Shown here piece by piece: positions 7,059-26,803 of a stretch of 64,000 nt of DNA. This DNA is from Candidatus Micrarchaeota archaeon (GTDB lineage Archaea > Micrarchaeota > Micrarchaeia > Anstonellales > Bilamarchaeaceae): NCBI GenBank assembly GCA_043821365.1, contig JBDRCX010000006.1, forward strand, positions 480,001 to 544,000, written 5' to 3'. The number at the start of each line of letters is the position of its first letter. The stretch's first letter is position 1. Position numbers and translations under genes: made by a program. The notes beneath the pieces were generated by a model that saw only the letters and a list, made by a program, of their open reading frames with translations, made no database searches and was not told where the DNA came from.

Positions 7059-8670
7059 GTGATCTCCTTTTGGTTATAATTACTATAACAATAAATAAAA
7101 ATGCCATCCCAACAACAATCGGGGCATAACATTGGCTAATTTCCTCTTCAATCTCTATTATCTTCATTTTTCCTTCCATTTCAGTTGTTATCAAATCTAA
7201 TTCTTTTGCAAGTCTTGCTGTTCTATAAGCTAGTGAAGTTTGGTTCTGTGTATAAAAGTATGCAGCATGGGATTGGTATACATTTCCCCATAATGAGTTT
7301 CTGGTTTCATTCACTATTGATAGGCTTACATTATCTAAAACATCTTCTGATTGGACAATTACAAAAACTGCGTCGTAAATTGCAGCACCATACTCACCAT
7401 CCTGGAAAGCTTCTTCTGCAATTTCAAGTCTATCTTCAAGATTGCTTTCAAGACTTTGAATGTTTGAAGCCTCATTTAGTTTTCTCTCTGCAATATCTTT
7501 CCATTCGCTTTCATCTATTTTGTTTCCACTTTCATTGGTTGAATTCAGAAGACCTTTTGCAACTTCACACCATGCTTGAGCATACATAATGTCATTATAT
7601 GCAATGTACTTTTCTTCCTCAAGAAGATTATCTATTTCTGTATTTTCTAATTTATTCTGTGCCCAGTTCTGGCGTAAATCCGCTCCAATAACCCACTGAA
7701 AATTACTATCAGTGATGGTTGGTCTTTCTATATCACCAAGACACTCACTAATATCATCAACTTTCTCATCAAGATCCACATTTCCTTCAATTGTTGCATA
7801 TATTGTCCACAAATCAATATAATTTAGGAATGCTTCATTTGCAGCTGTGAACAAATATCCTTTTTCTAAAATTGCATTTTGTCTAAGAACCTCATTTTCA
7901 AAAAAACTTTTTATGATGGCAGTTTCATTATCATTTGCAGTGATATTTGCAACAAGTTGTTCTTCAAGATCAATCATTCTTTCTGCAACTTTTTCAAATT
8001 CCTTCATATTTGAATAATTGTAATATGGTACTTCTGGTATCTCTCTTTTCTTTGATGATAATTCTACTTCTTCTATTGTTTCATTGTAAAAAACAAATCC
8101 AATAATCTCATCCATGCTTTTTGCTTGTAACACTGTCAGATTAAGTTGTTCTTTCAAATCCTTTAGTAAAAATGTTTCATAGAGGTCTTCTTCTGGTGTT
8201 ATGAAGTATTTTGCACCTATTGTGGAAGCTCCTTTTGCCTTTTCATAGAGTCCGCCTACAGCACCAACATTGCCAAATATATCTACTGTTCCTGTTATCA
8301 TTGTGTCTTCCCTAAGTTCGATATTTTTGAACAATGAATATGCCATTATGCTGAACGAAGCTCCTCCGCTTGGTCCCTCTATAAGATTTCCTCCTTTGTC
8401 TGGGAAATTAACATAAACATTACAGTTTTCGTTTGAGTTGGATGCTTTTTTTGCATAGGTGATTGCATCTTCTATTGATTTTTGTGTACTAACACCTATC
8501 TTCGGAGTTATTGTTACATAGGTGTCACCTGATCCCTGTGCAAGCGACATGGTTACCTGAACAAGGTCTCCATCGTCTCCAACAACAGCTGGTATGTAGT
8601 GTGAAACCTCCCCACTACACGATGCAAAAGCAAGTGAGAGCATCCCAATTAAAAGTAGAAAAAATCGCAT
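7012..8670 (-). CDS. Secreted, membrane-anchored S16 (Lon-like proteolytic domain) serine protease without AAA module
   Basis: Signal peptide; IEGPSGG (catalytic Ser), MITGTV, VGAVGGLYEKAKGA (catalytic Lys); C-terminal TM helix. Confidence 0.85.
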   Translation of the reverse strand: MRFFLLLIGMLSLAFASCSGEVSHYIPAVVGDDGDLVQVTMSLAQGSGDTYVTITPKIGVSTQKSIEDAITYAKKASNSNENCNVYVNFPDKGGNLIEGPSGGASFSIMAYSLFKNIELREDTMITGTVDIFGNVGAVGGLYEKAKGASTIGAKYFITPEEDLYETFLLKDLKEQLNLTVLQAKSMDEIIGFVFYNETIEEVELSSKKREIPEVPYYNYSNMKEFEKVAERMIDLEEQLVANITANDNETAIIKSFFENEVLRQNAILEKGYLFTAANEAFLNYIDLWTIYATIEGNVDLDEKVDDISECLGDIERPTITDSNFQWVIGADLRQNWAQNKLENTEIDNLLEEEKYIAYNDIMYAQAWCEVAKGLLNSTNESGNKIDESEWKDIAERKLNEASNIQSLESNLEDRLEIAEEAFQDGEYGAAIYDAVFVIVQSEDVLDNVSLSIVNETRNSLWGNVYQSHAAYFYTQNQTSLAYRTARLAKELDLITTEMEGKMKIIEIEEEISQCYAPIVVGMAFLFIVIVIITKRRSHGTNGPRYRKTHRIK

Positions 8671-9222: not shown

Positions 9223-9813
9223 TTATTCCTTAGGGATATTTTTTTCTGGTTTGCCAAGTTTTTTGAATGCCATAATGCCTTTTTCTGTTCTTGAGAACTG
9301 GTAGTTTTCAGATAGGTATAATTTTTCTAATTGGCTTCCTGTTTCTGTTATATAATCAGCAATGTTACCTTTTGGTATGTCCTCATATAAATATCCCATG
9401 ACATATTCGTGTCCTGAAGCAGAAGCTTCTTTTTCTCTTTCTATGAGAAGAATTCTTCTTACTCCTCTTCCTTCATATGCTAACAATACTGCAGGGTCTT
9501 CAAGATAAAGTGCATTTGGCTGGTTGTTTGTTATCTTCATTTCCTTTACATCTAAGTAAGCTGGCCAGCTTAGCCCAACCCCTATAATCATACGATTTAC
9601 TGTTGCTCCAAAACTCTTCCCATATTGTAAGATATTCCCAACTTCAGCTTCTGTTACATCAAAAGCACATTTTCTCATTATTTTTACACTTTCTTCAACA
9701 TCATCCATGGTAAGCCTTTTTACCTCTATCTCATCCTCAGACATGAGGTTAATGAATCTTTTTTTAGGAGCTTCAATCTCCTTTTTTTTATCTGCCTGTT
9801 TGAATGATTCCAT
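9223..9813 (-). CDS. GNAT-fold acetyltransferase-like protein
   Basis: LYLEDPAVLLAYEGRGVRRILL resembles GNAT motif A. Confidence 0.55.
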   Translation of the reverse strand: MESFKQADKKKEIEAPKKRFINLMSEDEIEVKRLTMDDVEESVKIMRKCAFDVTEAEVGNILQYGKSFGATVNRMIIGVGLSWPAYLDVKEMKITNNQPNALYLEDPAVLLAYEGRGVRRILLIEREKEASASGHEYVMGYLYEDIPKGNIADYITETGSQLEKLYLSENYQFSRTEKGIMAFKKLGKPEKNIPKE

Positions 9814-9859
9814 TTTTTATCCCTTGTTTTTGTTTGTTGAAATTCGCTTTTGGTTGTTG

Positions 9860-9912
9860 ATCTGGCCATGGGCCAGATGGGGTTCGAGGGGCTACAGCCC
9901 CTCAAAGAACCA
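9860..9912. repeat. Intergenic twin-hairpin (REP-like) element, copy 1
   Basis: ATCTGGCC-atg-GGCCAGAT followed by GGTTC-GAGGGGCT-ac-AGCCCCTC-aaa-GAACC; flanks shared with 29167-29204. Confidence 0.75.
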
Positions 9913-9925
9913 AAAACAAACAAAA

Positions 9926-10231
9926 CTACATGAACTTTGCTTTGCACACTGGGCATTGAGTGTACATACAGTCCATTCTATACCCACAAATAGGACATAC
10001 ATAGGAAGTTTTATTAGCTCTTTCTAATTCAGCTTCAAAGTCGTAAAAGCATTTTACACATTTCTTAATGCTAAGTTCATTAAGTGCTTCACAATGTGGA
10101 CATCTTCTTCTAAACATACTTGATATTCTTACACCGCATTTTGGGCATCTTTCCATTTTTAGATTTATGTTCTCTCCGCAATTAGGACAATTATCCCCTG
10201 GTTTTTTCTTTCCTTTAAAAAAATCAAACAT
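9926..10231 (-). CDS. Double-zinc-ribbon repeat protein
   Basis: Six CxxC pairs (CPNC, CPKC, CPHC, CVKC, CPIC, CPVC); last gene of the coupled operon. Confidence 0.85.
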   Translation of the reverse strand: MFDFFKGKKKPGDNCPNCGENINLKMERCPKCGVRISSMFRRRCPHCEALNELSIKKCVKCFYDFEAELERANKTSYVCPICGYRMDCMYTQCPVCKAKFM

Positions 10232-10237
10232 TAAACA

Positions 10238-13200
10238 TCACGGTATGATAGTGCAGTTGATATCATAATTTCTTAACGGCATTATGCTCCTACCGCAGAA
10301 TTCAGTTGTATCCCCTAATTCATCTGCTATTGATCCAAAGCCGCAATCAGCATCAATATATCCAAGTTTTGAAAATACTAGTGGTTTGTTTAGAGGCGTC
10401 TGCAATGGTGTTCTCACATAAGTGTATTTTGTACTTGTACCTGTTATTGCATCTTCTATTTCAAGACAGCATTTATCTGGCTTCCCAAAGCCAGCCATCA
10501 CATCCATGTACAAGTCTGAGTCTATGTCGTCCATATCACCTGCTATAGTGTCTGTACTTCCATTCTGGAATGTTCTTGTACACTCATAAGTTCCTGATGT
10601 TTGATTACACTCATTACATCCTGCTATAGTTACCCCACCGGGTGGACATCTGAAGTTTACAATGTTTGGGTTGAAATATGGGCTTACTTCTGATGCCGTT
10701 GGATCAGCAGCTGGTAGATTACAATGTGATCCATCATCACATTCGTCTGTTCCACATAAACCTTGTGCAACATCTAATCCAGTACAAAGTGTACAATTAA
10801 CAGAAGCCTCTGCAAATTTCCTTTCAAGTACGGCGCTTGGAGGAGTAGAGGACATAAGTTGGAATGCAGTTTGCAATGCACAGAATTTTTCATCTTTTGT
10901 TCCAACCACCAAACCATCTGCTCCACTGGCAGAAGTTGTTACAAATGCCGAACTACCCGATCCTCTTACTGGACTGAAAATTATCCCCATTAATCCAGAT
11001 TTAACGAAAGTTCCTTGTTTGTTTGCTATTGCCTTAAGAAGTTCTTCGTAATTATTATCATTCCAATAGGCATTATTCGGTGCACTTAATCCAACTAGCA
11101 TAGTTGGTTTGTTTATTCTGGTGGCATTGAGTGCTGTCTGAGCATAGGATGAAATTTCATCAATTATCTGCTCCGAATTTTTATTAGGGACAGTATAATC
11201 AAAAGTAACAAGATCTATTCTGGTGCTTAATGATGGGTCATTTCCAAGGATCCCATCAATGATATCTCTGAAATTAGTCACACTGTTTGGATCAGATACA
11301 TGGAAAGCAACTAGACAACCATAACATTTGTCCTTCATTATAACTGCTCTCTCATCAATTGCAACTGCTTTAGCTGCCAATGCAGAAGTTGAGTAAGTGG
11401 AACTTCCATCTACTTCATATATTATTACTACTGCTGCACCCATACCACCTATTAATGGTTCAAAGTCATACTTACTATATTGACTTGGGGGGCTACTATC
11501 TGTTCCCCAGAAATCGCTCCAACCACTAACATCGTGGTGTTGCGGGTTGGTAAGATCCCATATGTTAGCATCACTCATCTCCAATACTGGCATTATCCCT
11601 GCTTTCATATAGTCACCAAGTCTTTCCTTCATTATGCTTGCATCTGGTATTGTTCTTGGGGCTCCCATTATACCGGGTGAATATCCATTGTAGTCACTCA
11701 TATCAGGTATATCTTCGTTATAGCATGTTGCATACTCATCCATTGTCGTATGCCAGAAATTGTAATCTGCTTCGATTTCACATATTCTTTCTGTGATCAT
11801 TTGAGATGTTGGATCAACATCTAGTTCATGGGTGACAGTTGGGAGATAAACATTATCATAGTTGTATATTTTTTGATATGCAAGTGTTGATGTTGTGCAT
11901 GGTTCACACCATCCTAATTCTCTTACAACTGGTTTGAACTCATCATCAAGTTTGCACGCGCTTCCAAATGTAGTTCCGTTGTGTTTGAACAAATATACAT
12001 AGTTGCTGAATGCAACATAATAAGCAGGTCTTCCACCGTACATTGATGGACCATAAGAATAATAGTCATATGCACGGTCCAAATATTCGTATTCTATTTG
12101 TTCCAATGTACATGCATCTGTTCCTCTGGTGGTAACCATCGGCTCGTTGAATATATTCCTTTTTCTGAATGCTTGTGCTGCAGATGAACTTAGGAGTTTT
12201 TTTGTGGAACTTGAATAATAGAGCCAATCTCCATCTCCACCATCTTCCCAATTTCCACTACCCATAAACAATTGTTCGTAATAAACTATCCATGGTATCG
12301 AGGTCAAAATTACGTCTGCAGGTATGACTTCCTCATTGCAGTCAGTGGCTGCTTTTGCTTTGAGTGCATTTATCCGTTCTGTGAAATATGGTTTAAATGC
12401 ATCCATGAGTTCCTGCCATTCAGAATCATCTATATCGTCTAAGCTGATTCGGATAAAGTCATCTGTTTCAACTCCACTTGTAACATTTACACCACAATGG
12501 TCAACAATAAACATGTCTTCGAAATCGCCTGGTATTGAAAGAGCATAACCAATAATTTCATTTCCTCTGAACTGAACTGTACCTGCATCCATCGAACCAA
12601 AAAACACAGCACCGCCTATTGGAGGTCCAGTTGCACTTTCTGTAATATCTGGATCCCATAACTCTCTGCTACAAGTATCAGCACTATAGTCATCTCTACA
12701 GTCCCAATAACTATCATAGCCCCAATAATCCCACCAATAAATCCTTGGAAATTCTATGCTTGACGGTGAGTTAATCATGTATTCATATGGGTAGTAACTG
12801 TATCGCCGTACATCATCATCCATATCATTAAAAGCATCATGAAATGTAAGGCTAAAGTTCCCCCACCATCCCCATAGTTTTTCTTTCCATGCATCATCTA
12901 TATCGCTATAATCAACATCGTCCAGTATGTGGTCACCAACAACTGCATTCATACTACCATTGACCTCAAAATACCCATATCTTACTGCTACCTCAGCATA
13001 GTCAAATGTTGGAGGGTTGTTTCCATTTAATGTCACATCCATAGTTGGATAACAAAATACTTTTTCCTGATCATTTTCATCTTTTGCAGCCACGCAATCA
13101 GTGACAATTTCGATTTCAGTATCTCCTACCTCCTGTATCATCACACCTCTATTGTAAACTGTATTGTCACATTTTCCTGAATAACACTCTGTTTTATCAA

Positions 13201-14218
13201 GTCTACATTCAAATGGCGCTCTTCCCTCTCCAGGCACAAGCCCATAAATCGATTCTGCATGTGCAATAGTCAGTTGTCTTTTGTAAAATCCTTCATCTAT
13301 TTTTTTGAATAATCTTAAGTACTCAGCATCATCATAGTAATATCCTTCATAATATCCTGACCAATCAGCAAAAAATCCATGTCGTAGATTCCTTGCAAAT
13401 TTGTAATTAGCACTATCAGCAACCACAGTTCCTGGGAGTGTATTATCTATGCTACTAGTCCAACCCGGAATTGTTATGGTTGATTCATCATAACTAACTG
13501 GTTCTGGTGGATCACTATCCATAACACAATTCTCAGTTATGTCATCTGCTGGATTGTCAAAATCTTGAAGTGTAGTAGGATTGATGTAATTCATATAACG
13601 ATCAACCTTAGTATCACCAGTCATGGTCATTGTTAATGCACAATATTTGTCAGATACTGGAAGCAGATATCTATATTGATCAAATTCATCAAATGATGCA
13701 CCTGCACCCATCCTAAATACATTTACTACTCCCTTTGATGATTTTATTATTTTTCCAAATTTTTCATCAAATGGTATGAATCTGCAATTTGCTTTGTAAA
13801 AATTCATAATTGCCGATGCTGATTCTGCCGGGGGGTCACCCTCTGCATCCTCTGCAGGGTTTGCATATCCTGGTGCAGGAGTTGGGTTAAATATGAAAGC
13901 ACCACAAACCATTGCAGTACAATTTGGATTTGTACATGGATTTTCAAAATCCTGTGAACAGATTGGTGTTAGTCTTGTTATTCCATCATCATATGTTGCA
14001 TTACATCCCGTTTGTGGATCGCATGTACCAACTATCGGGAGTTCTCCTCCATTGGGATCTATACCGTTTACTGCATTAAGTGGATAATATAATTTACATA
14101 CACTTGGAACATCACTTCCTTGTTCTCTCATACAACACCCAACTTGCGGTATCTCTTCTATACAACCAAACGCAATTATTGTGAAAACTAAAATCAAGAT
14201 AATTTTTCTATCCATCAA
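10238..14218 (-). CDS. Large Cys-rich, acidic/aromatic-rich surface lipoprotein with a putative C-terminal TIM-barrel-like domain
   Basis: Lipobox-like IIAFG/C signal; many Cys; alternating beta/alpha pattern near the C-terminus. Confidence 0.7.
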   Translation of the reverse strand: MMDRKIILILVFTIIAFGCIEEIPQVGCCMREQGSDVPSVCKLYYPLNAVNGIDPNGGELPIVGTCDPQTGCNATYDDGITRLTPICSQDFENPCTNPNCTAMVCGAFIFNPTPAPGYANPAEDAEGDPPAESASAIMNFYKANCRFIPFDEKFGKIIKSSKGVVNVFRMGAGASFDEFDQYRYLLPVSDKYCALTMTMTGDTKVDRYMNYINPTTLQDFDNPADDITENCVMDSDPPEPVSYDESTITIPGWTSSIDNTLPGTVVADSANYKFARNLRHGFFADWSGYYEGYYYDDAEYLRLFKKIDEGFYKRQLTIAHAESIYGLVPGEGRAPFECRLDKTECYSGKCDNTVYNRGVMIQEVGDTEIEIVTDCVAAKDENDQEKVFCYPTMDVTLNGNNPPTFDYAEVAVRYGYFEVNGSMNAVVGDHILDDVDYSDIDDAWKEKLWGWWGNFSLTFHDAFNDMDDDVRRYSYYPYEYMINSPSSIEFPRIYWWDYWGYDSYWDCRDDYSADTCSRELWDPDITESATGPPIGGAVFFGSMDAGTVQFRGNEIIGYALSIPGDFEDMFIVDHCGVNVTSGVETDDFIRISLDDIDDSEWQELMDAFKPYFTERINALKAKAATDCNEEVIPADVILTSIPWIVYYEQLFMGSGNWEDGGDGDWLYYSSSTKKLLSSSAAQAFRKRNIFNEPMVTTRGTDACTLEQIEYEYLDRAYDYYSYGPSMYGGRPAYYVAFSNYVYLFKHNGTTFGSACKLDDEFKPVVRELGWCEPCTTSTLAYQKIYNYDNVYLPTVTHELDVDPTSQMITERICEIEADYNFWHTTMDEYATCYNEDIPDMSDYNGYSPGIMGAPRTIPDASIMKERLGDYMKAGIMPVLEMSDANIWDLTNPQHHDVSGWSDFWGTDSSPPSQYSKYDFEPLIGGMGAAVVIIYEVDGSSTYSTSALAAKAVAIDERAVIMKDKCYGCLVAFHVSDPNSVTNFRDIIDGILGNDPSLSTRIDLVTFDYTVPNKNSEQIIDEISSYAQTALNATRINKPTMLVGLSAPNNAYWNDNNYEELLKAIANKQGTFVKSGLMGIIFSPVRGSGSSAFVTTSASGADGLVVGTKDEKFCALQTAFQLMSSTPPSAVLERKFAEASVNCTLCTGLDVAQGLCGTDECDDGSHCNLPAADPTASEVSPYFNPNIVNFRCPPGGVTIAGCNECNQTSGTYECTRTFQNGSTDTIAGDMDDIDSDLYMDVMAGFGKPDKCCLEIEDAITGTSTKYTYVRTPLQTPLNKPLVFSKLGYIDADCGFGSIADELGDTTEFCGRSIMPLRNYDINCTIIP

Positions 14219-15270
14219 ATCACTTTACTAAACATTTTTGTCAGATCTGTTGAATCTGCTCCAAGTACAGTCATTATATACCTAACAAATACCATAGTTA
14301 GGAAAAATGCAATCAATGGGTGGAGTATGAGTTGCGAATAAACTTTAGATAATTCGCTTTTTACATCTCCAAGTGCTAGTCCGCTCGATCCTCCTTCACC
14401 ACTATTCATACTAGTAAGAACTGAAACGGCGGTACTCATAGTAGGGTAACAATATTGGTCCTGTACTGTTTGTGTGTTTTCAATTGGCGGAGGGGCAGGA
14501 ACAAAACTAGGATCAAGAAGAACATAGAAAACTGGAAAAATGTAATAAAATCCAATTCCTATGGACATCATAAGTGCTCCTGCTCCGCGAGTAAAGTAAA
14601 AACTTCTTAGTAAAAGACCAAGTGGAATAAACACCCCTAGCATGTTATTCTGAATGTAACGAATGAGTTCCGCTTGTGCATTTAATGTTATCAGCATATT
14701 TGTTAAGAGATTATTTGCTATTCTAAGTCTCTCTGCACGTTGATAATATGATGTAACCCAACCTCCCTGGAAAAATGTAATTCCCAAGGCACTAAGTTGA
14801 AGATCAAGTAAGAAAAATGTGTTGTATGTTTCTGATCCTGCACTCCCATCAAGTATGCCTTCCTGTGCTTCTGCAAGTGCCAATGCCTTTTCCTGGATTT
14901 TGCACCGAATTCCATCATATGCTTGATCCATCACGGTGTTACTAGTGTCTGTGGCAGTATTCTCAATATTTATCGATTCGCCTCTACAGTTAATCGTTCC
15001 GTGTATAGTGTTCCCTGCCACTTCCAGGGCACCGCCTAGTATCAACAAGAAAAAAATCGCCATGAATCCGTTTGCAGCTGATTGTAACAATTCTGATTTT
15101 GCATAGTTTTCAAGTTCTCTTATGCTAAAAGCACGTGCAATCATCAACAGTATGTTGTAAATAGCTATAGAGGTCATGACTGCAAGTAAACATAGGAAAA
15201 TCCAATGGCTCTGCCAATTGGTAAGAATATCCACCAATAATACTGGATTTGTTATGTTCGCAACCATCAC
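14215..15270 (-). CDS. Multi-pass membrane protein, paralog 6 of tandem family (VirB6/TraG_N-like)
   Basis: Shared blocks ELENYAKSELLQ, FIPLGLLLRSFYFTRGAG and LGADSTDLTKM. Confidence 0.75.
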   Translation of the reverse strand: MMVANITNPVLLVDILTNWQSHWIFLCLLAVMTSIAIYNILLMIARAFSIRELENYAKSELLQSAANGFMAIFFLLILGGALEVAGNTIHGTINCRGESINIENTATDTSNTVMDQAYDGIRCKIQEKALALAEAQEGILDGSAGSETYNTFFLLDLQLSALGITFFQGGWVTSYYQRAERLRIANNLLTNMLITLNAQAELIRYIQNNMLGVFIPLGLLLRSFYFTRGAGALMMSIGIGFYYIFPVFYVLLDPSFVPAPPPIENTQTVQDQYCYPTMSTAVSVLTSMNSGEGGSSGLALGDVKSELSKVYSQLILHPLIAFFLTMVFVRYIMTVLGADSTDLTKMFSKVI

Positions 15271-15278
15271 TACACCAC

Positions 15279-15321
15279 ATCGAAATTATATTTCGATTTA
15301 ATAAAATATTTCATATTTTAT
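15279..15321. repeat. Two adjacent perfect palindromes with 3-nt loops
   Basis: ATCGAAAT-tat-ATTTCGAT (15279-15297) and ATAAAATAT-ttc-ATATTTTAT (15301-15321). Confidence 0.7.
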
Positions 15322-16397
15322 ACCATCTGTACTATTTTACTTAAATCTATTTCATCACCGTATAATCTTGATAAGTATGAAACACTTGCTATTGTTGCAA
15401 GCAATGCAACTGTCGGGAAAAATCCTCCTCCAATGTAAGCATGCGCAGCATATTCCAATGCATATGGTATGTCTCCCAGGCGTTCATCATTACATGGTTC
15501 TGCATATGAATTATCTATGGCTAAATAGGCACATTTTACCGGGTCTTCACCCCATGTGCTCATGGCAAAGAATTCACCGTCTGATCTTTCAAGTGCGGCT
15601 TCGCCTTCATGGAATTCAGCAGCTCCGATTCCACTTGGTTCTTCAAAAAGCACATCTCCCATCAAATAAAATACGGCAAGGACTGTTGGATAGACAATCA
15701 TAAATGCCATAGAAACTGATATCAAAACTGCTCCAAGATTTCTCATATATGGAATACACCTTACAAATATTCCAACAGGTAAGAAAACAAATGCAAATCC
15801 TTTGTATACAAATATCAGAATAAAAAGATAACTAAGCTCAGTGAAATATGTTATTACTAGTCCATTATATGCAACGTTTAGGGCAGCCATACCTGCTCCA
15901 TATCCACCATATGGTTGCATATTCTGTCCACCCCAACCAAACCAACAACCAAGCCCAACTCGGCCTATTGAGAAGTCACATATAAATCCACTATAATATG
16001 ATAGCACTGTGTATGCTTCAAGCTGATATCTGCTTACAACCATTGCATCATGAGTGAACTCAAGTCCATCACGTAAGAAATATCCCGCAGCTTCAAATAT
16101 GTTTGCACTTGGTATCCCAGTTACATCAACTACGCCTGCAATTTCAGATATGTCAATGCTGCAAAATGACGATACTGTTAGTGTAATCACTGCTATTGTA
16201 GCTATTGAAATTCCAAGTTGGATAATCTCTGTTTTTGCCCAAAGAGATAATTTTGGATTTGAAAGAGCTTTGCTTGCCATATAACTTAATGCTATCAAAA
16301 TCGCAGTTGTGACTGCTGCCAAACCAACAAGTGGAAATATTGTGGTGTCCATGAAAGTTGTAAACGGTCCGCCACACATCAGTTGGGTATCCATCAT
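15318..16397 (-). CDS. Multi-pass membrane protein, paralog 5
   Basis: PKLSLWAKTEIIQ, FLPVGIFVRCIPYMRNLG, LYGDEIDLSKI. Confidence 0.75.
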   Translation of the reverse strand: MMDTQLMCGGPFTTFMDTTIFPLVGLAAVTTAILIALSYMASKALSNPKLSLWAKTEIIQLGISIATIAVITLTVSSFCSIDISEIAGVVDVTGIPSANIFEAAGYFLRDGLEFTHDAMVVSRYQLEAYTVLSYYSGFICDFSIGRVGLGCWFGWGGQNMQPYGGYGAGMAALNVAYNGLVITYFTELSYLFILIFVYKGFAFVFLPVGIFVRCIPYMRNLGAVLISVSMAFMIVYPTVLAVFYLMGDVLFEEPSGIGAAEFHEGEAALERSDGEFFAMSTWGEDPVKCAYLAIDNSYAEPCNDERLGDIPYALEYAAHAYIGGGFFPTVALLATIASVSYLSRLYGDEIDLSKIVQMV

Positions 16398-17353
16398 GTA
16401 AACCTCGCAATTGCACTTACATCTACTTCAGCACCCATAAGCGAACTCAATCCTCTGATTGTACCTGCGACTATCAACAATGCTATCACAGGTCCAAGTG
16501 TTGCTCTAAGTAGAATTGATTTTAAGTAGGCCTTTATCCCAGTCCTTATATCCATATACGAACTTTTTGCTTTGTTATCATTACTTCCCCATGGATCATC
16601 TGCATCGCAAGTTGTTAAACTTCCAGGGCTTCCACTATAAGCTCCTGCAGCTGCTGAACCATCAAATGTTTCTGCTAACATCTCATTGAATATAATCCCC
16701 AATGGAAGCATTATATGAAGTGAAATTGCAAGTGCAATGAAAAATCCACCTGCACCTCTTGTCAGTTTAAATGTTCTTAATAAAATTCCAATCGGAAGCA
16801 AAACTTTGAGTGCATATTCTCCTGCTATTGTAACTAATTTTTCCATTCCACTAACTTCAGCATATGCAAATCCAATAATCCCACCTGCCATACCCAGAGG
16901 TGGATTAAGCATGCTATAAGCACCACAACTGCTTACAGAGTAACCCATACCAAATAAACTACACTGGAATGCTTTTGATGCTTCACGTGATGCTGATGAA
17001 TCCAAACTAGTTACGGTGTTAAGCATCGTTTTTGCATCACTACTCCAACTTGCTAATATCACTTCTGCTTTGTCTTGTATATTGCCGCTTCCGCCGGTGA
17101 ATGCACCATTTTCTGAAATTCCATCAAGAATATTTACTGATCCATAGAAAACTGCAATCATCACAAGAAGTACAAGAAGTTGGAAGAACTCTTCCTTTGC
17201 TATCATCTTTAGTTCGTTTATGTCCATACCAAAGCCAACTGCATAAACCATCGCTAGTAATGTTGCTGCGGTGAATATTGCAAGTGCTGCTGTTGTTTGC
17301 CATGCAGCAAAAGCCAAAGGCACAAACAAAAGTAAAAGAAGCAGTTTCTTCAT
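16394..17353 (-). CDS. Multi-pass membrane protein, paralog 4
   Basis: Signal peptide; NELKMIAKEEFFQ, LLPIGILLRTFKLTRGAG, LMGAEVDVSAI. Confidence 0.75.
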   Translation of the reverse strand: MKKLLLLLLFVPLAFAAWQTTAALAIFTAATLLAMVYAVGFGMDINELKMIAKEEFFQLLVLLVMIAVFYGSVNILDGISENGAFTGGSGNIQDKAEVILASWSSDAKTMLNTVTSLDSSASREASKAFQCSLFGMGYSVSSCGAYSMLNPPLGMAGGIIGFAYAEVSGMEKLVTIAGEYALKVLLPIGILLRTFKLTRGAGGFFIALAISLHIMLPLGIIFNEMLAETFDGSAAAGAYSGSPGSLTTCDADDPWGSNDNKAKSSYMDIRTGIKAYLKSILLRATLGPVIALLIVAGTIRGLSSLMGAEVDVSAIARFT

Positions 17354-17354
17354 G

Positions 17355-19601
17355 TCAGAACACCTTTGATAATCCTGGGATTTCTATGTCCCCGCCTAAG
17401 GTGTGCGACAAGCTTCTTATGAATATAAGTGTGGCAACAACATTGAACAATGGAAGTAGATAGACTGGCACCATATACTTTGCCAAATCTGTTATTACTG
17501 GTCGGCCAACTAATCCGGTGTCTCCTACTTTTGTAAATGTGCTAAGGTCCTGATCTGGTCTTGTATTTGCTGGTTTGCATAAATCCTGACAATGAGCATT
17601 TATTGGTGGGGAATACATATATTCTTCTTCTGCAAAAATACACATCTCACAAGCAGTTCTTGGTATCGCAAGTCTATATTCTGATGGACATATGTCAAGA
17701 CCACAACTTAATCCTGCAGTATAAGTTACTGGGAGTGCAGGTGAATTTGACAAAATCATTTTTTGTGCTGGACAAAGAGTGCACTCTCCCTCAGCCATTG
17801 CTTCAATTTTTAGATCTTCTAATTCATCAAGATCAACTTTGCATCCATCTGGACAACTATTACAATCTGATATGATGTCATCCCCATCTCCATCATCTGT
17901 CCTACAACTACTGGGAACTAGATTCCAATATGTACTGCCATCATGTGCATTCAAGAATTCTTGAATTCTACATTCTGGTTTGCAAGTACCGCATAAATCA
18001 TTACACACTCCAGTTGGTGGCAACACGTAGACACAATTATTTTCTGCATTATTAATATCAGCATTACAATATTGTGCTCGTTCGCATCTTTCTTCTGCGT
18101 CATCATCTGCATTTTCTTTTGTTGGTCTCCAAGTTGGGTTATTTGATTTCGTAACTCTACAATCGTAACTTGATTGCAAACATAAATCATAATCTTCTTC
18201 GTCATCTCCATTATCGCTTGCTAGATATAAGTCTATCTCGGTTATGGTAGTATCATATCTACAATCTGATGCCAGCGGAGGTATTACCTTACATGTAGTT
18301 GGGCATTTTGCTACCTCTTCAGGTATAGTTACCTGCACTGTTCGTTTTATCTTACAATGTTCTGACATCAAAGCACATGATAGCGGGACATTAATATCTT
18401 CACTATTATTATGATTTCGTTTAATACAATCTGGTGCTGTGGGGTATGGCAATTCTCTGCAACCAACTGGGCATGTTCCCCATAATCCCCAATTACAAGA
18501 GTATGCCTGCCCACCTGAATACGGGCTACTGCTATTCTGAACAGGCATACCAGTATTTGGCAATCCTGCTCCAGGAGCCCAAATTGGAAGAGTCCCATTT
18601 ACAAATTGTTCAGCTATTGTGGCATCATTAAATAATAATTTTACTTCATCACTTTGATTAAACACTGTTACCTGCCCACTCTTTACAACAAATGCAAGTG
18701 GTGGTGGTATTTTACATTCTGCAGGGCACCCACTACTATATTCTTCTGATACTCCATCTCCACTTATTGAAATTTGTAATGTAAACCAGTTAAATATATA
18801 CATTCCCGGGAAAAAAAACATGGCACCTATGGCTACCGCCATCAGAAGTCCACCAAGCTTTCTACTGAAAAAGAAGCTTCTTGCGACTATACCTATGGCA
18901 AGAATAACTGGTCCCATCTTTCCGGCTATCTCCTTCACAAAGAATTTTTGAGCGCCTACAAATGAAAGTAAGGTTGTGTAATTTTCGAAGAGTATTGCGT
19001 TCATGTCTGCGTAAAGAGCATAATATCCTCCAAAGCCCATATTTATTCCAAGTTGTGCACAATATATCAGACTCAAGCAGTTCAGACCAAATCTTCTTCC
19101 TATCCATTGTATGTCATTTGCATTACTATCAAGAACATTTTTTGCATTTGATTTTATGTTACTATAAATTTGGTCATCAAGATAATATTCTGTGACATCC
19201 TGAAGGCATTCTATACTTCCTTTTTGTGTGCCGCCATATGCTAAGTTACATCCTGCTATTGGTATTCCATCTGGTCCAGTGTCAGTCATTATTCCAATAA
19301 CAAGAAGATCTATGAATGCGATTGTTGCAATAAGGGCAACAACTATTATGGCATTTGTAAATACTTGTACAAATTCTGTTTTTGCCCATGCTTGCAATTC
19401 TGGCATCTCCAGTCCACTCCCAAACATATAGGCTATTGAAACCAGTGTGATTGATATGATAAGAGCAAGAACAGTCAGTACTTGCCAATTATTTGCTATC
19501 TCTAATATAGAATTTTCTGTAGTGTCTTCAAATACTTCGTCTGCAGTATCTGCGAAAGCAATTACAGAAAATAATAATAACAACAGCAAGATTTTTCTCA
19601 T
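17355..19601 (-). CDS. Multi-pass membrane protein, paralog 3, with ~390-aa Cys-rich extracellular insertion
   Basis: PELQAWAKTEFVQ, ILAIGIVARSFFFSRKLG, LGGDIEIPGL; CxxCPxxC-rich insert. Confidence 0.75.
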   Translation of the reverse strand: MRKILLLLLLFSVIAFADTADEVFEDTTENSILEIANNWQVLTVLALIISITLVSIAYMFGSGLEMPELQAWAKTEFVQVFTNAIIVVALIATIAFIDLLVIGIMTDTGPDGIPIAGCNLAYGGTQKGSIECLQDVTEYYLDDQIYSNIKSNAKNVLDSNANDIQWIGRRFGLNCLSLIYCAQLGINMGFGGYYALYADMNAILFENYTTLLSFVGAQKFFVKEIAGKMGPVILAIGIVARSFFFSRKLGGLLMAVAIGAMFFFPGMYIFNWFTLQISISGDGVSEEYSSGCPAECKIPPPLAFVVKSGQVTVFNQSDEVKLLFNDATIAEQFVNGTLPIWAPGAGLPNTGMPVQNSSSPYSGGQAYSCNWGLWGTCPVGCRELPYPTAPDCIKRNHNNSEDINVPLSCALMSEHCKIKRTVQVTIPEEVAKCPTTCKVIPPLASDCRYDTTITEIDLYLASDNGDDEEDYDLCLQSSYDCRVTKSNNPTWRPTKENADDDAEERCERAQYCNADINNAENNCVYVLPPTGVCNDLCGTCKPECRIQEFLNAHDGSTYWNLVPSSCRTDDGDGDDIISDCNSCPDGCKVDLDELEDLKIEAMAEGECTLCPAQKMILSNSPALPVTYTAGLSCGLDICPSEYRLAIPRTACEMCIFAEEEYMYSPPINAHCQDLCKPANTRPDQDLSTFTKVGDTGLVGRPVITDLAKYMVPVYLLPLFNVVATLIFIRSLSHTLGGDIEIPGLSKVF

Positions 19602-20611
19602 CCAATCGCCCTCAATCCCTTATGCACGGCATTCATAAATGCCACAATTATTACTATTGTCAAGTTCGGGAAAAAGAACGCAAAAGGTAATAATTTCCCC
19701 ACATTCCAGAAACCAATTGAATTACTGCATGCGTTTCCACCGCCAGAACATCCTCCATCTACAACCCTATCACATACTGCATCTTCAAAATCATCACAAT
19801 CGTCTTCGTCTATGATATCATACATAGCTAATTCAAAAACATACATGAATGGAATTATGATATAAATTCCCAAACACAAGGCTATCAATAAATCCCCCAT
19901 CTGCCGTGTTGGTATGAATATTCTAAGTAAAAATGCTACTGGCAGCAGCCATTGAACTATGTTTTCTTTTATGAAACCAAGCATTAGTTTTTGCATGTTA
20001 ATGCTTACCAGTGCGGGTATCAAAAGTGAGCTGAATATCATTTCGTATTGGCTTGATCGTATCCTTTTGTATGCTGCCCCGGTTAGAGTATAACTGTTTA
20101 CTAAAGGCATAGCAAAGCTCCAGGCAAATGACGAGTCCATCATCTCTGATATTTGCCTATCAACATATGATTTTGTTATATCCTCTGCATCCTGGCTAAG
20201 CTTGTCAAGATAACAGTATGCTACGTCATTCATACTTGCACTGTTGCAGGACAATGCACCAAAAGTTGTTCCCAAATTCGTAAGAAGTAGTTGTGAGAAT
20301 CCTTCCATCGTGTAACATGTTCCAATAAGTATACCACTAAAAGCCATAAGAAAAACAATTGAGAAGCCAAGATGGTACATTTCGTCTTTAGAAAATACTA
20401 GAAAATTAGCATTTGTAAAAACTGTTCCGATCATGTACGTAATTGCTATCAATAATATGGTGAATGCTATTACTATGCTTATCAACACTCCCTGTTCTGC
20501 GAAAATACCAACTGTTGAATTATCTATGCAGTTGGTTGTGGAATCTATTGTCCACACTCCTGCTGCAGTTGCAAATGAAACAAAAATCAAAAATGCAAGT
20601 AATTTTTTCAT
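19598..20611 (-). CDS. Multi-pass membrane protein, paralog 2
   Basis: Signal peptide; NFLVFSKDEMYH, LLPVAFLLRIFIPTRQMG. Confidence 0.75.
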   Translation of the reverse strand: MKKLLAFLIFVSFATAAGVWTIDSTTNCIDNSTVGIFAEQGVLISIVIAFTILLIAITYMIGTVFTNANFLVFSKDEMYHLGFSIVFLMAFSGILIGTCYTMEGFSQLLLTNLGTTFGALSCNSASMNDVAYCYLDKLSQDAEDITKSYVDRQISEMMDSSFAWSFAMPLVNSYTLTGAAYKRIRSSQYEMIFSSLLIPALVSINMQKLMLGFIKENIVQWLLPVAFLLRIFIPTRQMGDLLIALCLGIYIIIPFMYVFELAMYDIIDEDDCDDFEDAVCDRVVDGGCSGGGNACSNSIGFWNVGKLLPFAFFFPNLTIVIIVAFMNAVHKGLRAIG

Positions 20612-21825
20612 ATCAGTCTTTGCACCCCGAACATGTATGCTTCTCCTCCAAGTGCGGTAGATAAGCTTTTTGCCCCTGAGATTGTTATTATTGCTATTAT
20701 TATCAGATCAATGTAGGTCAGAAAAACCAAATTATTAACAGCTTCAAGGAATGGTATCACAACATCAAATGCATTTAGCCAATATGGATCACCAGCCATG
20801 ACAATTGGTTCCCATAATAATGTAAACACAGTAAAAAGTACCTGAAAAATAATTTGTATTATTGGATAGACAACATTTTGTACAAGAGTAACACAACCAG
20901 GATAGGCAGCCTGGCCACCAGGAATGAATAATAAAAATAAACAAACTATCAATGCAAAAGGATAATCCCCAAGCCCGAGCAAAACTCGTATTGGTTCTAC
21001 TTCACAAAATCCAGCGGATGCTCCCATTACCCATGTTGCACCATTAAGGGTACTTTGATCAATTGATGGATTTGGCATGGTTATGCTTTGGTTGAGTTGA
21101 TCAACTATAATTACCGATAATGGAAGGAAAACATAGGCTGCTATTGCTATTGAAATAAGTGTGTTGCCAAGTTTTCTTGTAAAAGGGATAACACGTACTA
21201 TGAATGCACCCGGAAGCAAAATTGCTGGTACTATGACATCAGCATAAACAATAAGTAATCTTATTCCTTCAGATAGAAATATTGCATTTGTCAATGCTTG
21301 TGTTGCAATCGTGAGTGGTGTCAATAACAACATAGTACCTGATAGTGGGTTTGTTGCATAGCTTATGGACACATACCATAAAGGAATACTCAGATATGGT
21401 GAATAGGTTGATGCTGTTCTTATCTTTCCTCCAGCTTCTATTGCTTCCTTGAAGGCGTCATCAAATTCATCTATCCAATCATCTATTATCCCTACTGATG
21501 TTGTTATGTAATTTGATCCTGCAGCATTACCAGCTAATATTTCACCAATATCTCCGGATGTTACTGCACCAGTTACAACAATTGAAATTAGCGATATTAT
21601 TATGAGTGCAACTCCAAATTCTCTGAGTTCTGTTTTTACCCATGCATTTAATTTTGGGTCTGATGTCATCTCAGCTATCATTTTTGTTATTGCAAGTAAA
21701 ATTACAACAACCATTGCAGCTATTGGCACTGAGATTTTTATCTCATCTCCTATTGGAGTTACCAATCCAGCATGCAGAACTGATAACAATGTTAAAATTA
21801 ACAATCCAGCACGCCAAAGAACCAT
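20608..21825 (-). CDS. Multi-pass membrane protein, paralog 1
   Basis: PKLNAWVKTELRE, LLPGAFIVRVIPFTRKLG, LGGEAYMFGV. Confidence 0.75.
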   Translation of the reverse strand: MVLWRAGLLILTLLSVLHAGLVTPIGDEIKISVPIAAMVVVILLAITKMIAEMTSDPKLNAWVKTELREFGVALIIISLISIVVTGAVTSGDIGEILAGNAAGSNYITTSVGIIDDWIDEFDDAFKEAIEAGGKIRTASTYSPYLSIPLWYVSISYATNPLSGTMLLLTPLTIATQALTNAIFLSEGIRLLIVYADVIVPAILLPGAFIVRVIPFTRKLGNTLISIAIAAYVFLPLSVIIVDQLNQSITMPNPSIDQSTLNGATWVMGASAGFCEVEPIRVLLGLGDYPFALIVCLFLLFIPGGQAAYPGCVTLVQNVVYPIIQIIFQVLFTVFTLLWEPIVMAGDPYWLNAFDVVIPFLEAVNNLVFLTYIDLIIIAIITISGAKSLSTALGGEAYMFGVQRLI

Positions 21826-21932
21826 AGCTAGACTTCTACCTTGTTAATTTAAATCTTTTTGATTTTGATCTGTTGAATCCTCGCAAAGTTTACCGAACAA
21901 ATAATTATAAATCTACTAAAGTGTATTATAAC
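21826..21932. promoter_or_regulatory. Divergent promoter region with two TATA-like boxes
   Basis: TTTAAAT at ~21847-21853 lies ~22 nt from the minus-strand ATG (21825); TTATAAAT at 21905-21912 lies ~20 nt before ATG 21933. Spacing fits leaderless archaeal transcripts. Confidence 0.45.
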
Positions 21933-24900
21933 ATGAAATATGGTCTCGCTATTTTAGGAGTGCTCTTTTTTGTTAATTTAATTTCTGCAACAGACTGTCT
22001 TGATTGTGATGATCTTAACGAAGCATTACAAGGAAAGTTATTTACGTTAACACATACTTATGAAAAAACTATAGAAATTTATGCCTATTACGAAAATAAT
22101 TCTGCTCCTGATCCAAGAGTCGCATTAAACAACACCGCAATAATAATAGAAATTACCAATGCTTCAAATAGTGGTAATTTTCCTCAGTTGCACAAAGTCT
22201 ACACTGATCAAACTGGCAAAGCAGAATTTGATTTTTCTGAGTGGGCTGACGATTCAACTAGTGGATGCTTCAATATGAAAGTTCTCTACTGTCCTTTTTG
22301 TACTGTTGATTCTTCACACTGTGGTTTTGCAGAGTGTCTTTCTTTTTCAAGTATACGCAATACCTCTGGCTATTATAGTAATATAATTGGGGACATTGAA
22401 AACATAGATGATATTGAAGGCCCATCTGCTCCTGCAGTAGTTAACAACGGGACTTATCTTCCACAGGTTACTCTTGTTTCATTCTGTTCTCCACCGCCAC
22501 CAGCCGCAACTACTCCTGCTTTTTGCCTTCCATTAATTCTTGTTTTTGCTTTACTAGGTGGTGCACTTTATCTTTCTGGACAGAATCCATTTGGTGTATT
22601 CAATCTTGGTTCTCCAAGAGTTGGAAGACATATTCGTTATCAAGCAAGAGCAAGAGGATTTTCATTTAGTGTTATGTCTGTTATTCAAGCTGCAGGATCA
22701 ATTGCATCAACAGTAAGTCAAGTAAAAAAAGCAAAAGCAGAAGCAAAAAAAGAAGGAAAGAGTATGTCTACTGGTGATGCAATAAAAAAAGTGGAGAGCA
22801 ATAGGGCAAGTTATAATATTATTGGTGCCTCCTCAGTGAATAGGATAAAGATGGGTATTGGTGGTTTTAAATCAGCACGGGCAAAAGCAGCTGCAAAGGG
22901 AGGAACAGCTCAAGGTCAAGCCATGCGCTCAGGACAAGATGCCGGAACTGGTGGTCGTGGTGTACAATTTTTAGGACCTGGACAAATGAGAATGCCTGGA
23001 GAGGGGTATGGAAATACTGGTGGCAAGTTAATGGCTAAATGGGGTGGAGGCAAGGGGGCATCTGGTTATTTTGGAAAGATGGCAGCTGGATTTACTGCAA
23101 TGGGGGTAGGACTCTTATCAAGTTTGCCAATTTTCTATTCGTTTAGTGCAATTGCTACTGCTTGCGGCGCAGATACTAATATTATGGCAAGAATTGAAAG
23201 AGGATCTAGAGATCCTGCTAGAGCTCAAGCAGAACTAAACCAAAGACTTGGTCAAGACGGAAATCCAATAATTACTTTGTCTGATGGTGAAACAGAAGCA
23301 ACTATGACTATGGCAGCAGGAGAAGAAACAACAACTGTTGGACTTACTGCCATACCAGTACCAGGTGAATCTCAACCAGAACAACCACCAGCAGAGAAAC
23401 AAGCACAAGTTACAATGGACAATGAGACTGGAGAGGTAAAAGCTGTTTCTTACGAAGCCCCAGCAACTGCTAAGAATCCTGAAACAGGAGAAGCAACTGC
23501 TGGTCAAAAAGTAGCTGTTTCTGGAACATCTGGAGATGCAACTGTTAAAGTTGAAGCAGGAGGAACTACTACGGAATATAAAATTACTCAAGTTTCTCCA
23601 ACTCCAGTTACTGGCGCAGAAGCAGATGCAGTAAAAGCATTAGCAGCACCAGGTGCAACACCGGCAGACGGACAAACAGTGGTTGTAGTTACTGCTCCAG
23701 ATGGGGGAACAAAAATAAGGATAGATGGTGGAGATCAGGCAGGAACTTATAGTGTTGGAGCTGATGGTTCTGTTGCTAGAATCCAACCAGATGTTATTAC
23801 TAAAACTGAACCTATTACTGGTCCTGCAGCAGACCAGATAAGGACTTTATGCAGTCCAACTACCGGTCCTTTACCAGAAGGTAATGTATCAGTTGTGGCA
23901 GGTCCTAATGGGGAACAGCAGTTCAAAATTGATGGTGGACCAAATGCAGGAACTTATACTTTTGGTGCAGATGGCTCGGTTACTAGAATTGAAACTGTTA
24001 CTGGCCCTGCAGCAGATGCAGTAAAAGCATTAGCAGCACCAGGACTTACTGGTGATGGTATTATTGGCGGGTTTAAGGTTGGAGATACTCCAACAATGCC
24101 AGCTGATCGTTGGGCTGGTCAAATGACTCCAGCTGAAATAGCAAAATTAGAAGCACAAGGGCAATATGTTGGTGATCTCCAAAAACAAGACACATTCCTT
24201 GCATCATGTGCAGAGACTGTTATAGGTGTACAAGAAGCTATTGATCATGTTAAATCAACAACTCAGGCAGCAGCTGGAGATAGACACGATGAGATTGCAA
24301 CTGCTATATCTGCTCCTGAAGGAAAAGCTCTTCTTGATGCTGCGTTAGATAGGGAAGCAACTACTGCTGCATCATTGGCATTTGGGAAACCAGTTGAACC
24401 AGAAGAAGCAACCAAACTCACAACTGGGGTTGCAAAAACAATTGAAGAAACTGATCTTTATCGCGGGGGGTTTGGAGCAGATGCTGTCAGAACTGTCTGG
24501 GATGAACATAATCCGGTTATGGGTGATGATAAAAGACAAGCACTAGAACGGGCTGGAATGGCCATCGATCAGATAGTTGCCAGTTTGCCAGTTGGTGATC
24601 TTGCAGAAATGACCCCAGCTAAATTACAAGGCCACTTAGAACAAAGATTGGGAGAAGGTGCTGCAACAGTACTCGAACATATAAAACTAGATCATGTATC
24701 CGGAAATATTCAAAGAGAGGCAGGAGAATTCAAACAAGAACTAACTGCACGATTAGGTGAAACTACAGCTTCCCAATTATTATCTACACCTCAAGAACAA
24801 TTTCAAATATTGCGTGAGTCTTCTAATCGTATTTACGAAGCACGAGCTGATCCTAGTGGAACAGAAGCAGTTAGTTTAGTTATGAGAGATCCATCTAAAC

Positions 24901-26197: not shown

Positions 26198-26803
26198 ATG
26201 TTAGAAAAACTTCTGCGTTCAAAAGCAGGTGTCAAGCTTATTGGTACAGTCCTATTCAACGATGGTCTTCATCTAAGGGAATTGGCCAGAAAGGCAAATA
26301 TTTCACCATTTGAAGCAAAAAGAGAATTAGATATATTGTTAGATCTGGATCTATTGACTCGTAAGAAAGTGGGCAATCAGGTTTTTTTCTATACTAACAA
26401 AGAGTGTTCTTTTCTTCAGGATCTTAAAAATCTCTATCAAAAAACAGAGGGGTTTTTTATGGTTTTGAAAGAAGCACTGTTGCCACTTAACCTAAAGTAT
26501 GCTTTCGTATTTGGTAGTATTGCAAAAGGAACAGAGATAAAGAATAGTGATCTAGATCTGTTAGTGATAGGTGATGAATCAGATACTAACCTGTCAAATA
26601 TTATCTTCAAAACTCAGAAAAAGTTCAATAGAGACATAAATTTCATATTATGGTCAAGAAAAGATTTTCAGGAAAAACTAAACTCTAAAAACATGTTTCT
26701 ATTTAATATTTTAAATCAAAAAATAATTTGGATTATGGGGGATGAGTATGAGTTTAGCAGAATTGTTAAAGAAGGATTTGGTAAGAAAATCAGAACCAGA
26801 TAG
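26198..26803 (+). CDS. HTH-fused minimal nucleotidyltransferase (MNT antitoxin)
   Basis: N-terminal wHTH (LHLRELARKA); FVFGSIAKG...SDLDLLVIG. Confidence 0.85.
   Translation: MLEKLLRSKAGVKLIGTVLFNDGLHLRELARKANISPFEAKRELDILLDLDLLTRKKVGNQVFFYTNKECSFLQDLKNLYQKTEGFFMVLKEALLPLNLKYAFVFGSIAKGTEIKNSDLDLLVIGDESDTNLSNIIFKTQKKFNRDINFILWSRKDFQEKLNSKNMFLFNILNQKIIWIMGDEYEFSRIVKEGFGKKIRTR

Follow-up and report, generated by a model that had tools for sequence, protein, structure and literature searches.

A conserved array of six paralogous membrane-protein genes in Micrarchaeota, a candidate base of a machine related to type IV secretion systems

The archaeal systems closest to the one described here are Ced of Sulfolobales and Ted of Thermoproteales, which import DNA with a VirB6-like protein (CedA/TedA), a VirB2-like pilin (CedA1/TedC) and a VirB4-like ATPase (CedB/TedB), and a relation through a pilin-like hairpin has been reported for CedA/CedA1 as well as for VirB6/VirB2 (PMC9905601). 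Chromosomal type IV secretion systems (T4SSs) have also been described in Patescibacteria, ultra-small episymbionts in which they were proposed to serve host interaction (PMC12102498), and giant 'SPEARE' proteins bearing VirB4/TraG are known from Nanohaloarchaeota (PMC10266531). The machine proposed here bears on the poorly understood physical exchange of material between DPANN archaea and their hosts. We analyzed an operon, array A, that comprises genes for six paralogous membrane proteins (p1 to p6, in transcription order) and, as the seventh gene, one for a giant Cys-rich lipoprotein. It lies in a 64,000-nucleotide stretch (hereafter the window; positions 480,001 to 544,000 of contig JBDRCX010000006.1, assembly GCA_043821365.1) of a Candidatus Micrarchaeota archaeon. 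We assign a probability of roughly 70% to the reading that array A and its lipoprotein are the surface-exposed base of a T4SS/Ced-like machine, namely a VirB6-like hetero-oligomer whose motor and pilins are encoded elsewhere.

Like Ced and Ted, such a machine would be a chromosomal, vertically inherited and domesticated T4SS derivative of archaea. Both would have a polytopic VirB6-like protein with an N-terminal hairpin that resembles a pilin, the best named match of the associated ATPase is CedB, and the loci of both are without a relaxase or coupling protein. However, Micrarchaeota have six channel-protein paralogs in a fixed order (twelve and a lone copy in the order studied here) instead of one or two, and their motor gene is preceded by separate genes for proteins with two transmembrane segments (2-TM proteins), and the motor is possibly split. 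Moreover, array A adds the giant lipoprotein with its glycoside hydrolase clan A (GH-A) barrel and Cys-rich ectodomains in an organism that is a DPANN symbiont, no sequence similarity of the family to CedA models was detectable, and the CedB score is far under its cut-off.

With bacterial VirB6/TrbL proteins (PF04610; TrwI of R388, PDB 7o3v/8rtd), the family shares five transmembrane (TM) segments, an outer N-terminus and inner C-terminus, the TM2-TM3 loop and a motif at the end of TM3. VirB6/TrbL works with VirB4 and VirB2, and the Micrarchaeota family is linked to a VirB4-like ATPase and candidate pilins. In contrast, no HMM (hidden Markov model) or profile match joins the two families. TrwI assembles beneath VirB5 as a homo-pentamer; the prediction for Micrarchaeota is a head-to-tail packing of six different subunits. 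None of VirB5, VirB7-10 or VirB11 was seen with the Micrarchaeota system. The rvhB6a-e genes of Rickettsiales are diverged VirB6-like genes standing in a row in a reduced, host-dependent genome, some with very large extensions, and their products are recognisable TrbL-family members within a diderm T4SS. Unlike these, the six genes of Micrarchaeota are fixed in order across the phylum and were duplicated as a whole. The likeness to Patescibacteria and Nanohaloarchaeota lies in an ultra-small episymbiont with a chromosomal T4SS-derived machine and giant surface proteins; however, lineages and architectures differ, in that the giant protein of Nanohaloarchaeota itself bears the ATPase as a fusion and Patescibacteria have one VirB6 gene.

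A literature search for T4SS- or Ced-like systems of DPANN and Micrarchaeota yielded no paper describing a six-paralog VirB6-like array, and the machine is apparently unpublished; the ideas in print that come nearest are those on the giant proteins of Nanohaloarchaeota and the T4SSs of Patescibacteria. If the reading is true, the T4SS/Ced lineage would extend to DPANN, and the array would be the first fixed six-paralog set of VirB6 type, a natural experiment in the passage from a homo-oligomeric channel to an obligate hetero-oligomer. Micrarchaeota genomes of about 1 Mb devote seven to fifteen or more genes to the machine and keep it almost phylum-wide; because of this gene cost and retention, it is probably central to their lifestyle. 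The proteins of interest for further work are the pilins, the paralogs p1-p6, the split motor and the lipoprotein; at present, every member of the paralog family is annotated as a hypothetical protein, without a Pfam family.

The six paralogs and their history

The source genome (G000) consists of 1.2 Mb in six contigs, C2 and C6 among them, and is 87% complete. Its DNA occurs in groundwater and biofilm metagenomes, and no RNA run was among the data sets listed for it. It was compared with other Micrarchaeota genomes, of which G023, G025, G026, G029, G042, G063 and G126 are referred to below by these labels. The features of array A and the adjoining gene are as follows.

20608-21825, minus strand: p1, a VirB6-like five-TM paralog of 405 residues (family HMM, E 2e-74), in one clade with p1 of five other genomes
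19598-20611, minus strand: p2, a paralog of 337 residues with a signal peptide (family HMM, E 3e-56; p2 clade with approximate likelihood ratio support, SH-aLRT, of 97-98)
17355-19601, minus strand: p3, a paralog of 748 residues with a Cys-rich insert, placed by alignment A1
16394-17353, minus strand: p4, a paralog of 319 residues, the copy used for folding
15318-16397, minus strand: p5, a paralog of 359 residues (family HMM, E 9e-91), the predicted partner of p4
14215-15270, minus strand: p6, a paralog of 351 residues (family HMM, E 1e-79; p6 clade with SH-aLRT 99)
10238-14218, minus strand: giant Cys-rich lipoprotein of 1326 residues, seventh gene of array A, with orthologues directly after p6
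10709-11821, minus strand: clan GH-A-like triosephosphate isomerase (TIM) barrel domain of the lipoprotein, about residues 800-1170 (AlphaFold2 model and Foldseek)
9926-10231, minus strand: zinc-ribbon gene, 101 residues (Pfam DZR, 6e-9)

All eight minus-strand open reading frames (ORFs) of 9926-21825 were found where a preliminary description of this DNA had located them, and so were the junctions that it gave, namely four-nucleotide overlaps at 20608-11, 19598-601, 16394-97 and 14215-18, a one-nucleotide gap at 17354 and a six-nucleotide gap ahead of the zinc-ribbon gene. It had missed a 47-nucleotide gap between p5 and p6 (15271-15317). The three sequence blocks that it had ascribed to all six paralogs stand where it placed them, except that the C-terminal L.G.[ED] tail occurs in five of the six and is absent from p2. 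Its inclusion of the giant lipoprotein gene was borne out, as this gene is the partner of array-A p6 in six of six genomes and has a signal peptide and a lipobox-like start. In contrast, the zinc-ribbon gene is no regular member of the module, since a homologue near an array was found in G026 only and on the other side of that array.

In alignment A1, which holds the six window paralogs, p2-p6 are 19-22% identical to p1, and K64 and E66 of block 1 and R211, R217, G220 and P235 of block 2 are invariant. The family HMM matches every window copy at E 1e-56 to 1e-91, and the paralogy of the six is therefore real and well outside chance. The most conserved blocks of the family, K-x-E, R..TR..G and the tail, are cytoplasmic loops. 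The Cys-rich insert of p3 (about 420 residues) is placed by A1 in the extracellular TM4-TM5 loop, between block 2 and the last TM segment, and the p3 orthologues of other genomes vary from 574 to 1380 residues. Large inserts are also present at other positions in other genomes, where p1 reaches 680 residues (L028/G029), p2 834 residues (L030/G023) and p5 1062 residues (L020/G025).

No Pfam, NCBIfam or PHROGs family was found for the paralogs, and PDB sequence searches with the profiles of A1 and of the family alignment A2 gave chance matches to AcrZ only. An exhaustive profile search (E ≤ 1e-3, counted as cluster representatives) retrieved 2934 representatives; the named matches were all 'hypothetical protein' of Micrarchaeota, and the closest named relative belongs to Candidatus Bilamarchaeum (67% identity). 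The source genome has 13 copies, distributed over array A, a second six-gene array (array B, G000:C6:594659-602309) and one lone copy (C6:146025-147128). The family was present in 31/31 searched relatives of the same order. All five genomes of five other families that were examined closely have two six-gene arrays, and four of them also have the lone copy. In a phylum-wide sample, 111 of 121 Micrarchaeota genomes had the family, with a single array in several families and without a match in five families (10 genomes). The six-gene order was conserved across families.

Maximum-likelihood trees were inferred with IQ-TREE (LG+G4, quick search). The first tree included 77 proteins of six genomes from six families, and its genes cluster by position, not by genome: p1, p2, p3, p5 and p6 each form one clade of 12, p4 splits into two clades, and the lone copies form a separate clade (SH-aLRT 100). 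Every position clade divides further into array-A and array-B clades with one gene per genome. On this tree the position labels require 6 changes, the minimum possible, against a mean of 51.7 for shuffled labels. After the addition of three distant single-array genomes from three more families (second tree, 96 rows), p3, p5, p6 and the lone copy remained single clades, and 8 changes were required against a shuffled mean of 64.3. The position clades therefore indicate a history in which one gene gave rise to six ordered paralogs and the array was then duplicated as a whole and inherited vertically. By these trees, the six are ancient paralogs in a fixed order that were later duplicated as an entire array. 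That genomes of only about 1 Mb retain six non-interchangeable copies, always in the one order, argues for an obligate hetero-oligomer.

We predicted the complex of p4 and p5, each submitted with an alignment of its own orthologues. The interaction prediction score from aligned errors (ipSAE) was 0.69 (0.69, 0.66 and 0.78 in the individual runs), compared with 0.00 for the best of three controls; the mark used for ipSAE was reached by 58/80 solved complexes and 2/110 mismatched pairs, which are rough counts given the custom alignments. The runs share at least 89% of contacts, with a predicted local distance difference test score (pLDDT) of at least 73 for the partner. The interface of about 220 contacts uses a different face on each chain, head-to-tail, with the outer-loop helices, hairpin, TM3 and TR loop on the side of p4 and TM2, TM4 and TM5 on the side of p5. 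Such an asymmetric interface fits the need of a ring or helical stack, and the model supports binding between p4 and p5. The idea of a hetero-oligomer, put forward in the preliminary description, thus gains from both the strict positional orthology and a predicted interface that passes its controls.

A CedB/VirB4-like ATPase and candidate pilins

The closed or near-closed genomes G126, G042 and G063, which represent three other Micrarchaeota families, have on one strand and in tight spacing the order p1-p6, two 2-TM genes, an ATPase gene and accessory genes (the ATPase of G063, whose frame is absent from the ORF list, was located by the CedB model alone). The ATPase downstream of the array in these three families is the orthologue of one in the source genome, where a motor module at C6:342-346 kb encodes a 271-residue 2-TM protein, a 526-residue ATPase, a 140-residue protein, a coiled-coil protein and an 854-residue membrane protein. 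The presence of array and ATPase in one operon in three families therefore points to a single conserved operon, which has come apart in the order of the source genome. No member of the VirB6-like family lies near this detached module, and a motor module of its type is kept in 31/31 searched relatives of the order. The preliminary description had reported no VirB4 in the locus, which is true of the locus but wrong for the genome and for the ancestral operon, both of which contain the ATPase.

A second gene row accompanies the lone copy (C6:142-147 kb) and encodes a 260-residue 2-TM protein, an alpha/beta hydrolase, a 517-residue ATPase and a coiled-coil protein. The lone copy adjoins the ATPase in the source genome, in its genus and in G025, G026 and G042, and in G042 it stands directly upstream of the 2-TM gene and the ATPase. 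The two motor modules are paralogous (2-TM proteins 37% identical, coiled-coil proteins 31%), and the coiled-coil proteins of both have a possible C-terminal winged helix. The 526-residue ATPase matched NCBIfam CedB at 6.5e-21 (74.6 bits), the VirB4-like CD1110 at 5.5e-19 and also Pfam P-loop_TraG; for the 517-residue ATPase the values were 2e-26 (92.7 bits) for CedB and 5e-24 for CD1110, with HerA lower at 1e-12. For both ATPases, CedB and CD1110 are the best NCBIfam matches and score higher than HerA. A channel-type protein is accordingly encoded together with a VirB4/CedB-like ATPase, as in T4SSs and in Ced and Ted. Since the CedB scores lie below the cut-off, the ATPase is to be regarded as a relative of the CedB/VirB4 group and not as a CedB orthologue. 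For the 2-TM proteins upstream of the ATPases, no PDB relative was found; that they correspond to VirB3 or to the N-terminal part of VirB4 is a guess.

Candidate pilins were found as small ORFs, of which two immediately precede p1 in G126 and a third precedes the lone copy in G042; they match TrbC/VirB2 at 1e-4 and T4SS_pilin at about 2e-4. Among the three families with the array-ATPase operon, one (G126) has pilin candidates in it. A six-frame search of the source genome with the TrbC and T4SS_pilin Pfam models gave nothing significant. Only a search with the G126 candidate protein revealed homologues in the source genome, at C2:173739-174026 (E 2e-16) and C6:184278-184499, with none in the window. 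In addition, array-B p2 (521 residues; G000:C6:595953-597518, L016:7954-9519, plus strand) has two tandem VirB2/TrbC-like pilin modules fused N-terminal to the VirB6-like core. The pilin profile aligned by hhalign with the TM1-loop-TM2 hairpin of the family (positions 42-105 with 20-84, P = 7.6e-4), and it matched nothing in the PDB. In the ESM Atlas, 23% of the members of a Micrarchaeota cluster carry a CedA1 domain (PF27251; feature scores 0.88-0.89), a lead that the relation between pilin and hairpin would explain.

Proposed relation to VirB6, the lipoprotein and the alternatives

In the predicted path of the paralogs, the N-terminus is outside, TM1 and TM2 are joined in the cytoplasm by the K-x-E loop, and about 100 residues outside the cell connect TM2 with TM3. 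TM3 and TM4 are joined on the cytoplasmic side by the R..TR..G loop, TM4 and TM5 by an outer loop that is variable, and the tail after TM5 is cytoplasmic. The orientation was set by the signal peptides, the Cys-rich loops outside and the basic character of the TM3-TM4 loop. An N-out, five-TM path is the published topology of Agrobacterium tumefaciens VirB6. The five hydropathy segments are collinear with those of Agrobacterium VirB6, both proteins have a large TM2-TM3 outer loop with the C-terminus inside, and both have the motif P-x7-F-x2-T-R at the end of TM3. The p4 model (pLDDT 90.9, predicted template modelling score 0.83, 75-sequence alignment) consists of long helices with a beta-hairpin in the loop after TM2. 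A Foldseek comparison of this model with the PDB gave no significant match; the only full-length fold match was TrwI/VirB6 of R388 (E 0.14, probability 0.8, template modelling score 0.30), which is within chance for helical models. Beyond the family's own clusters, the ESM Atlas gave TrbL (template modelling score 0.47) and TrbL_2 (0.40) as the first neighbours with a name. These fold scores, which are within noise for helical proteins, are suggestive.

Several results weigh against the proposed reading. Pfam TrbL matched none of the six paralogs (E ≤ 1) and none of 75 family members (E ≤ 0.01), a six-frame genome search with PF04610 at E ≤ 10 recovered 0/13 copies, and no score near gathering was obtained with PF04610 or PF19478. 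Searches of PDB sequences with the family profiles gave no link to VirB6. Comparison of A2 by hhalign with a 20-sequence profile of Agrobacterium-type VirB6 gave a probability of 0.2% in both default and permissive settings; this comparison leaves the shared motif unaligned, and it used a narrow VirB6 profile (effective sequence number, Neff, 3.3) without secondary structure. The CedB matches of the ATPases are far under the equivalog cut-off of NF041017 (92.7 and 74.6 against 700 bits), and a likeness of the 2-TM proteins to the CedB N-terminus was seen in 1/9 members (E 0.007). The TrbC and T4SS_pilin matches of the candidate pilins are below the gathering cut-offs, and the hhalign probability of the pilin-to-hairpin alignment is 25%. 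In the source genome, there is no ATPase or pilin gene near either array, and the array stands apart from any ATPase gene in two of the five closed genomes that represent other families. Finally, the paralogs of a homo-oligomer may pass complex prediction by their likeness alone. The VirB6/CedA-like character claimed in the preliminary description consequently draws its support chiefly from genomic context, with topology and fold ranking in addition, and none from the TrbL and VirB6 sequence profiles.

The missing profile or HMM link to TrbL/VirB6 and fold scores inside the noise of helical bundles would also suit an unrelated Micrarchaeota membrane family that fills the VirB6 slot by convergence. 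We consider such an analogue unlikely. The order of the five TM segments, the TM2-TM3 outer loop and the P-x7-F-x2-T-R motif are all as in Agrobacterium VirB6; VirB6 is the only full-length match in the PDB, and TrbL provides the first named Atlas neighbours. Moreover, the hairpin at the N-terminus resembles a pilin, a feature of CedA and VirB6 as well (PMC9905601). Homology to VirB6, assembly into a ring and the cargo are parts of the reading that we infer; what the analysis shows is the paralogy, the constant order of the six, their conservation across the phylum, the operon link to the ATPase and candidate pilin, and the GH-A fold.

The lipoprotein has an N-terminal signal peptide and a lipobox-like ...FGC, after which comes CC. 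Its orthologue stands after array-A p6 in 6/6 genomes, with a lipobox ..G-C, a CC motif about ten residues further on and 20-27% identity; array B of the source genome is without a lipoprotein partner. Evolution of this protein is fast: within the same family, only 11 of 46 genomes had a detectable barrel domain, and a search of protein collections for the barrel gave only three homologues. The AlphaFold2 model of residues 800-1170, for which 12 sequences were available, has an overall pLDDT of 69.8, with about 82-94 in most of the core of the barrel. Of the 162 matches that Foldseek found in the PDB (E ≤ 1e-3), the 50 listed were TIM-barrel glycoside hydrolases without exception and belonged nearly all to clan GH-A, including heparanase (1e-5), GH5, GH53, GH10 and GH2, each with a probability of at least 0.98. 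The Atlas neighbours of the barrel were GH5, GH53 and GH42 clusters (template modelling scores 0.50-0.57). According to this model, the domain has the (beta/alpha)8 barrel of clan GH-A. In alignment A7 of the 12 sequences, no Glu or Asp is invariant, E65 and D202 being nearly so, and no conserved counterpart of the catalytic Glu pair of clan GH-A (acid/base after strand 4, nucleophile after strand 7) is apparent. A lectin-like role is therefore likelier than hydrolysis, and the barrel is, to judge from its residues, probably non-catalytic and sugar-binding.

Under the T4SS/Ced-like reading, the six genes would encode six distinct subunits of one five-TM family with the topology and helix order of VirB6/TrbL/CedA, in which TM1, the K-x-E loop and TM2 would form the pilin-like hairpin. 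The subunits would pack side by side and head-to-tail and most likely make up a platform or channel, hetero-oligomeric and set in the cytoplasmic membrane. It would serve as the membrane base for a T4SS-derived machine of the Ced/Ted kind, encoded on the chromosome and inherited vertically, whose further parts would be VirB2/TrbC-like pilins, the 2-TM proteins that always precede the motor, the CedB/VirB4-like ATPase and small accessory proteins of the cytoplasm. In the source genome, the detached motor would be supplied from C6:342-346 kb and the pilins from the genes at C2:173.7 kb and C6:184.3 kb. The sugar-binding barrel of the lipoprotein and the Cys-rich loop of p3 would be the exposed, partner-recognising part, and may thereby engage the host. 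Cargo, whether DNA or other macromolecules, would move between the symbiont and its host or neighbours; by analogy with Ced, this may be DNA import, or another form of exchange with the host. A more specific form of the proposal is tentative, and we regard it as possible rather than probable: a hetero-hexameric VirB6-like ring would match a six-fold VirB4/CedB-like motor and, with pilin and lectin-like lipoprotein, serve as a conduit for DNA or macromolecules from hosts, arrays A and B being two interchangeable surface specificities for one motor.

The arrays of the source genome might instead work without a motor, as a scaffold that displays adhesin-like ectodomains and the lipoprotein for host attachment. 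This would suit the distance of both arrays from any ATPase or pilin gene, the Cys-rich inserts on the outer loops and the very fast divergence of these loops and of the lipoprotein. We consider it quite improbable, however, given that the ancestral arrangement in three other families unites array and motor in one operon, that all 31 searched relatives of the order keep the detached motor module, and that the cytoplasmic loops are the most conserved parts, which is unexpected in a passive scaffold. That the operon belongs to an integrated conjugative plasmid or other mobile element, where T4SS-type components usually reside, is very improbable because each position of each array has one gene per genome across families, the G+C content (0.36-0.39) is the same as that of the flanks and the genes neighbouring arrays A and B are housekeeping genes, array B being flanked by a PIN gene and a tRNA synthetase gene. 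In addition, the family occurs almost throughout the phylum, and no relaxase, coupling-protein or integrase family was found among the Pfam-scanned neighbours (ten around array A and two beside array B; the search for relaxases was confined to these genes).

Neighbouring genes in the window

A divergent gene for a 1322-residue membrane protein (21873-25841, plus strand) begins 47 nucleotides from p1. It was not counted as part of the array, since a homologue near an array was seen in G026 only; no family was found for it, and it bears no resemblance to the accessory membrane proteins encoded with the motor. At the opposite end of array A, the double zinc-ribbon gene and the next ORF, of 196 residues (together 9223-10231, minus strand), look like a unit of their own: the zinc-ribbon homologue of G026 is paired with a homologue of the ORF at 9223-9813, and the two genes are again adjacent there.

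A 552-residue protein encoded further downstream (7012-8670, minus strand) has a signal-peptide-like N-terminus and a C-terminal proteolytic domain of the Lon protease (E 3e-12), with no match to an ATPase domain. A giant ORF of at least 3412 residues (53573-64000, minus strand) continues past the window end and probably encodes a huge surface protein; its sole Pfam match is a calcineurin-like phosphoesterase (residues 2269-2431, E 7e-9). At 26198-27170 on the plus strand, a nucleotidyltransferase gene (NTP_transf_2) overlaps a HEPN gene, an arrangement typical of a toxin-antitoxin-like pair.

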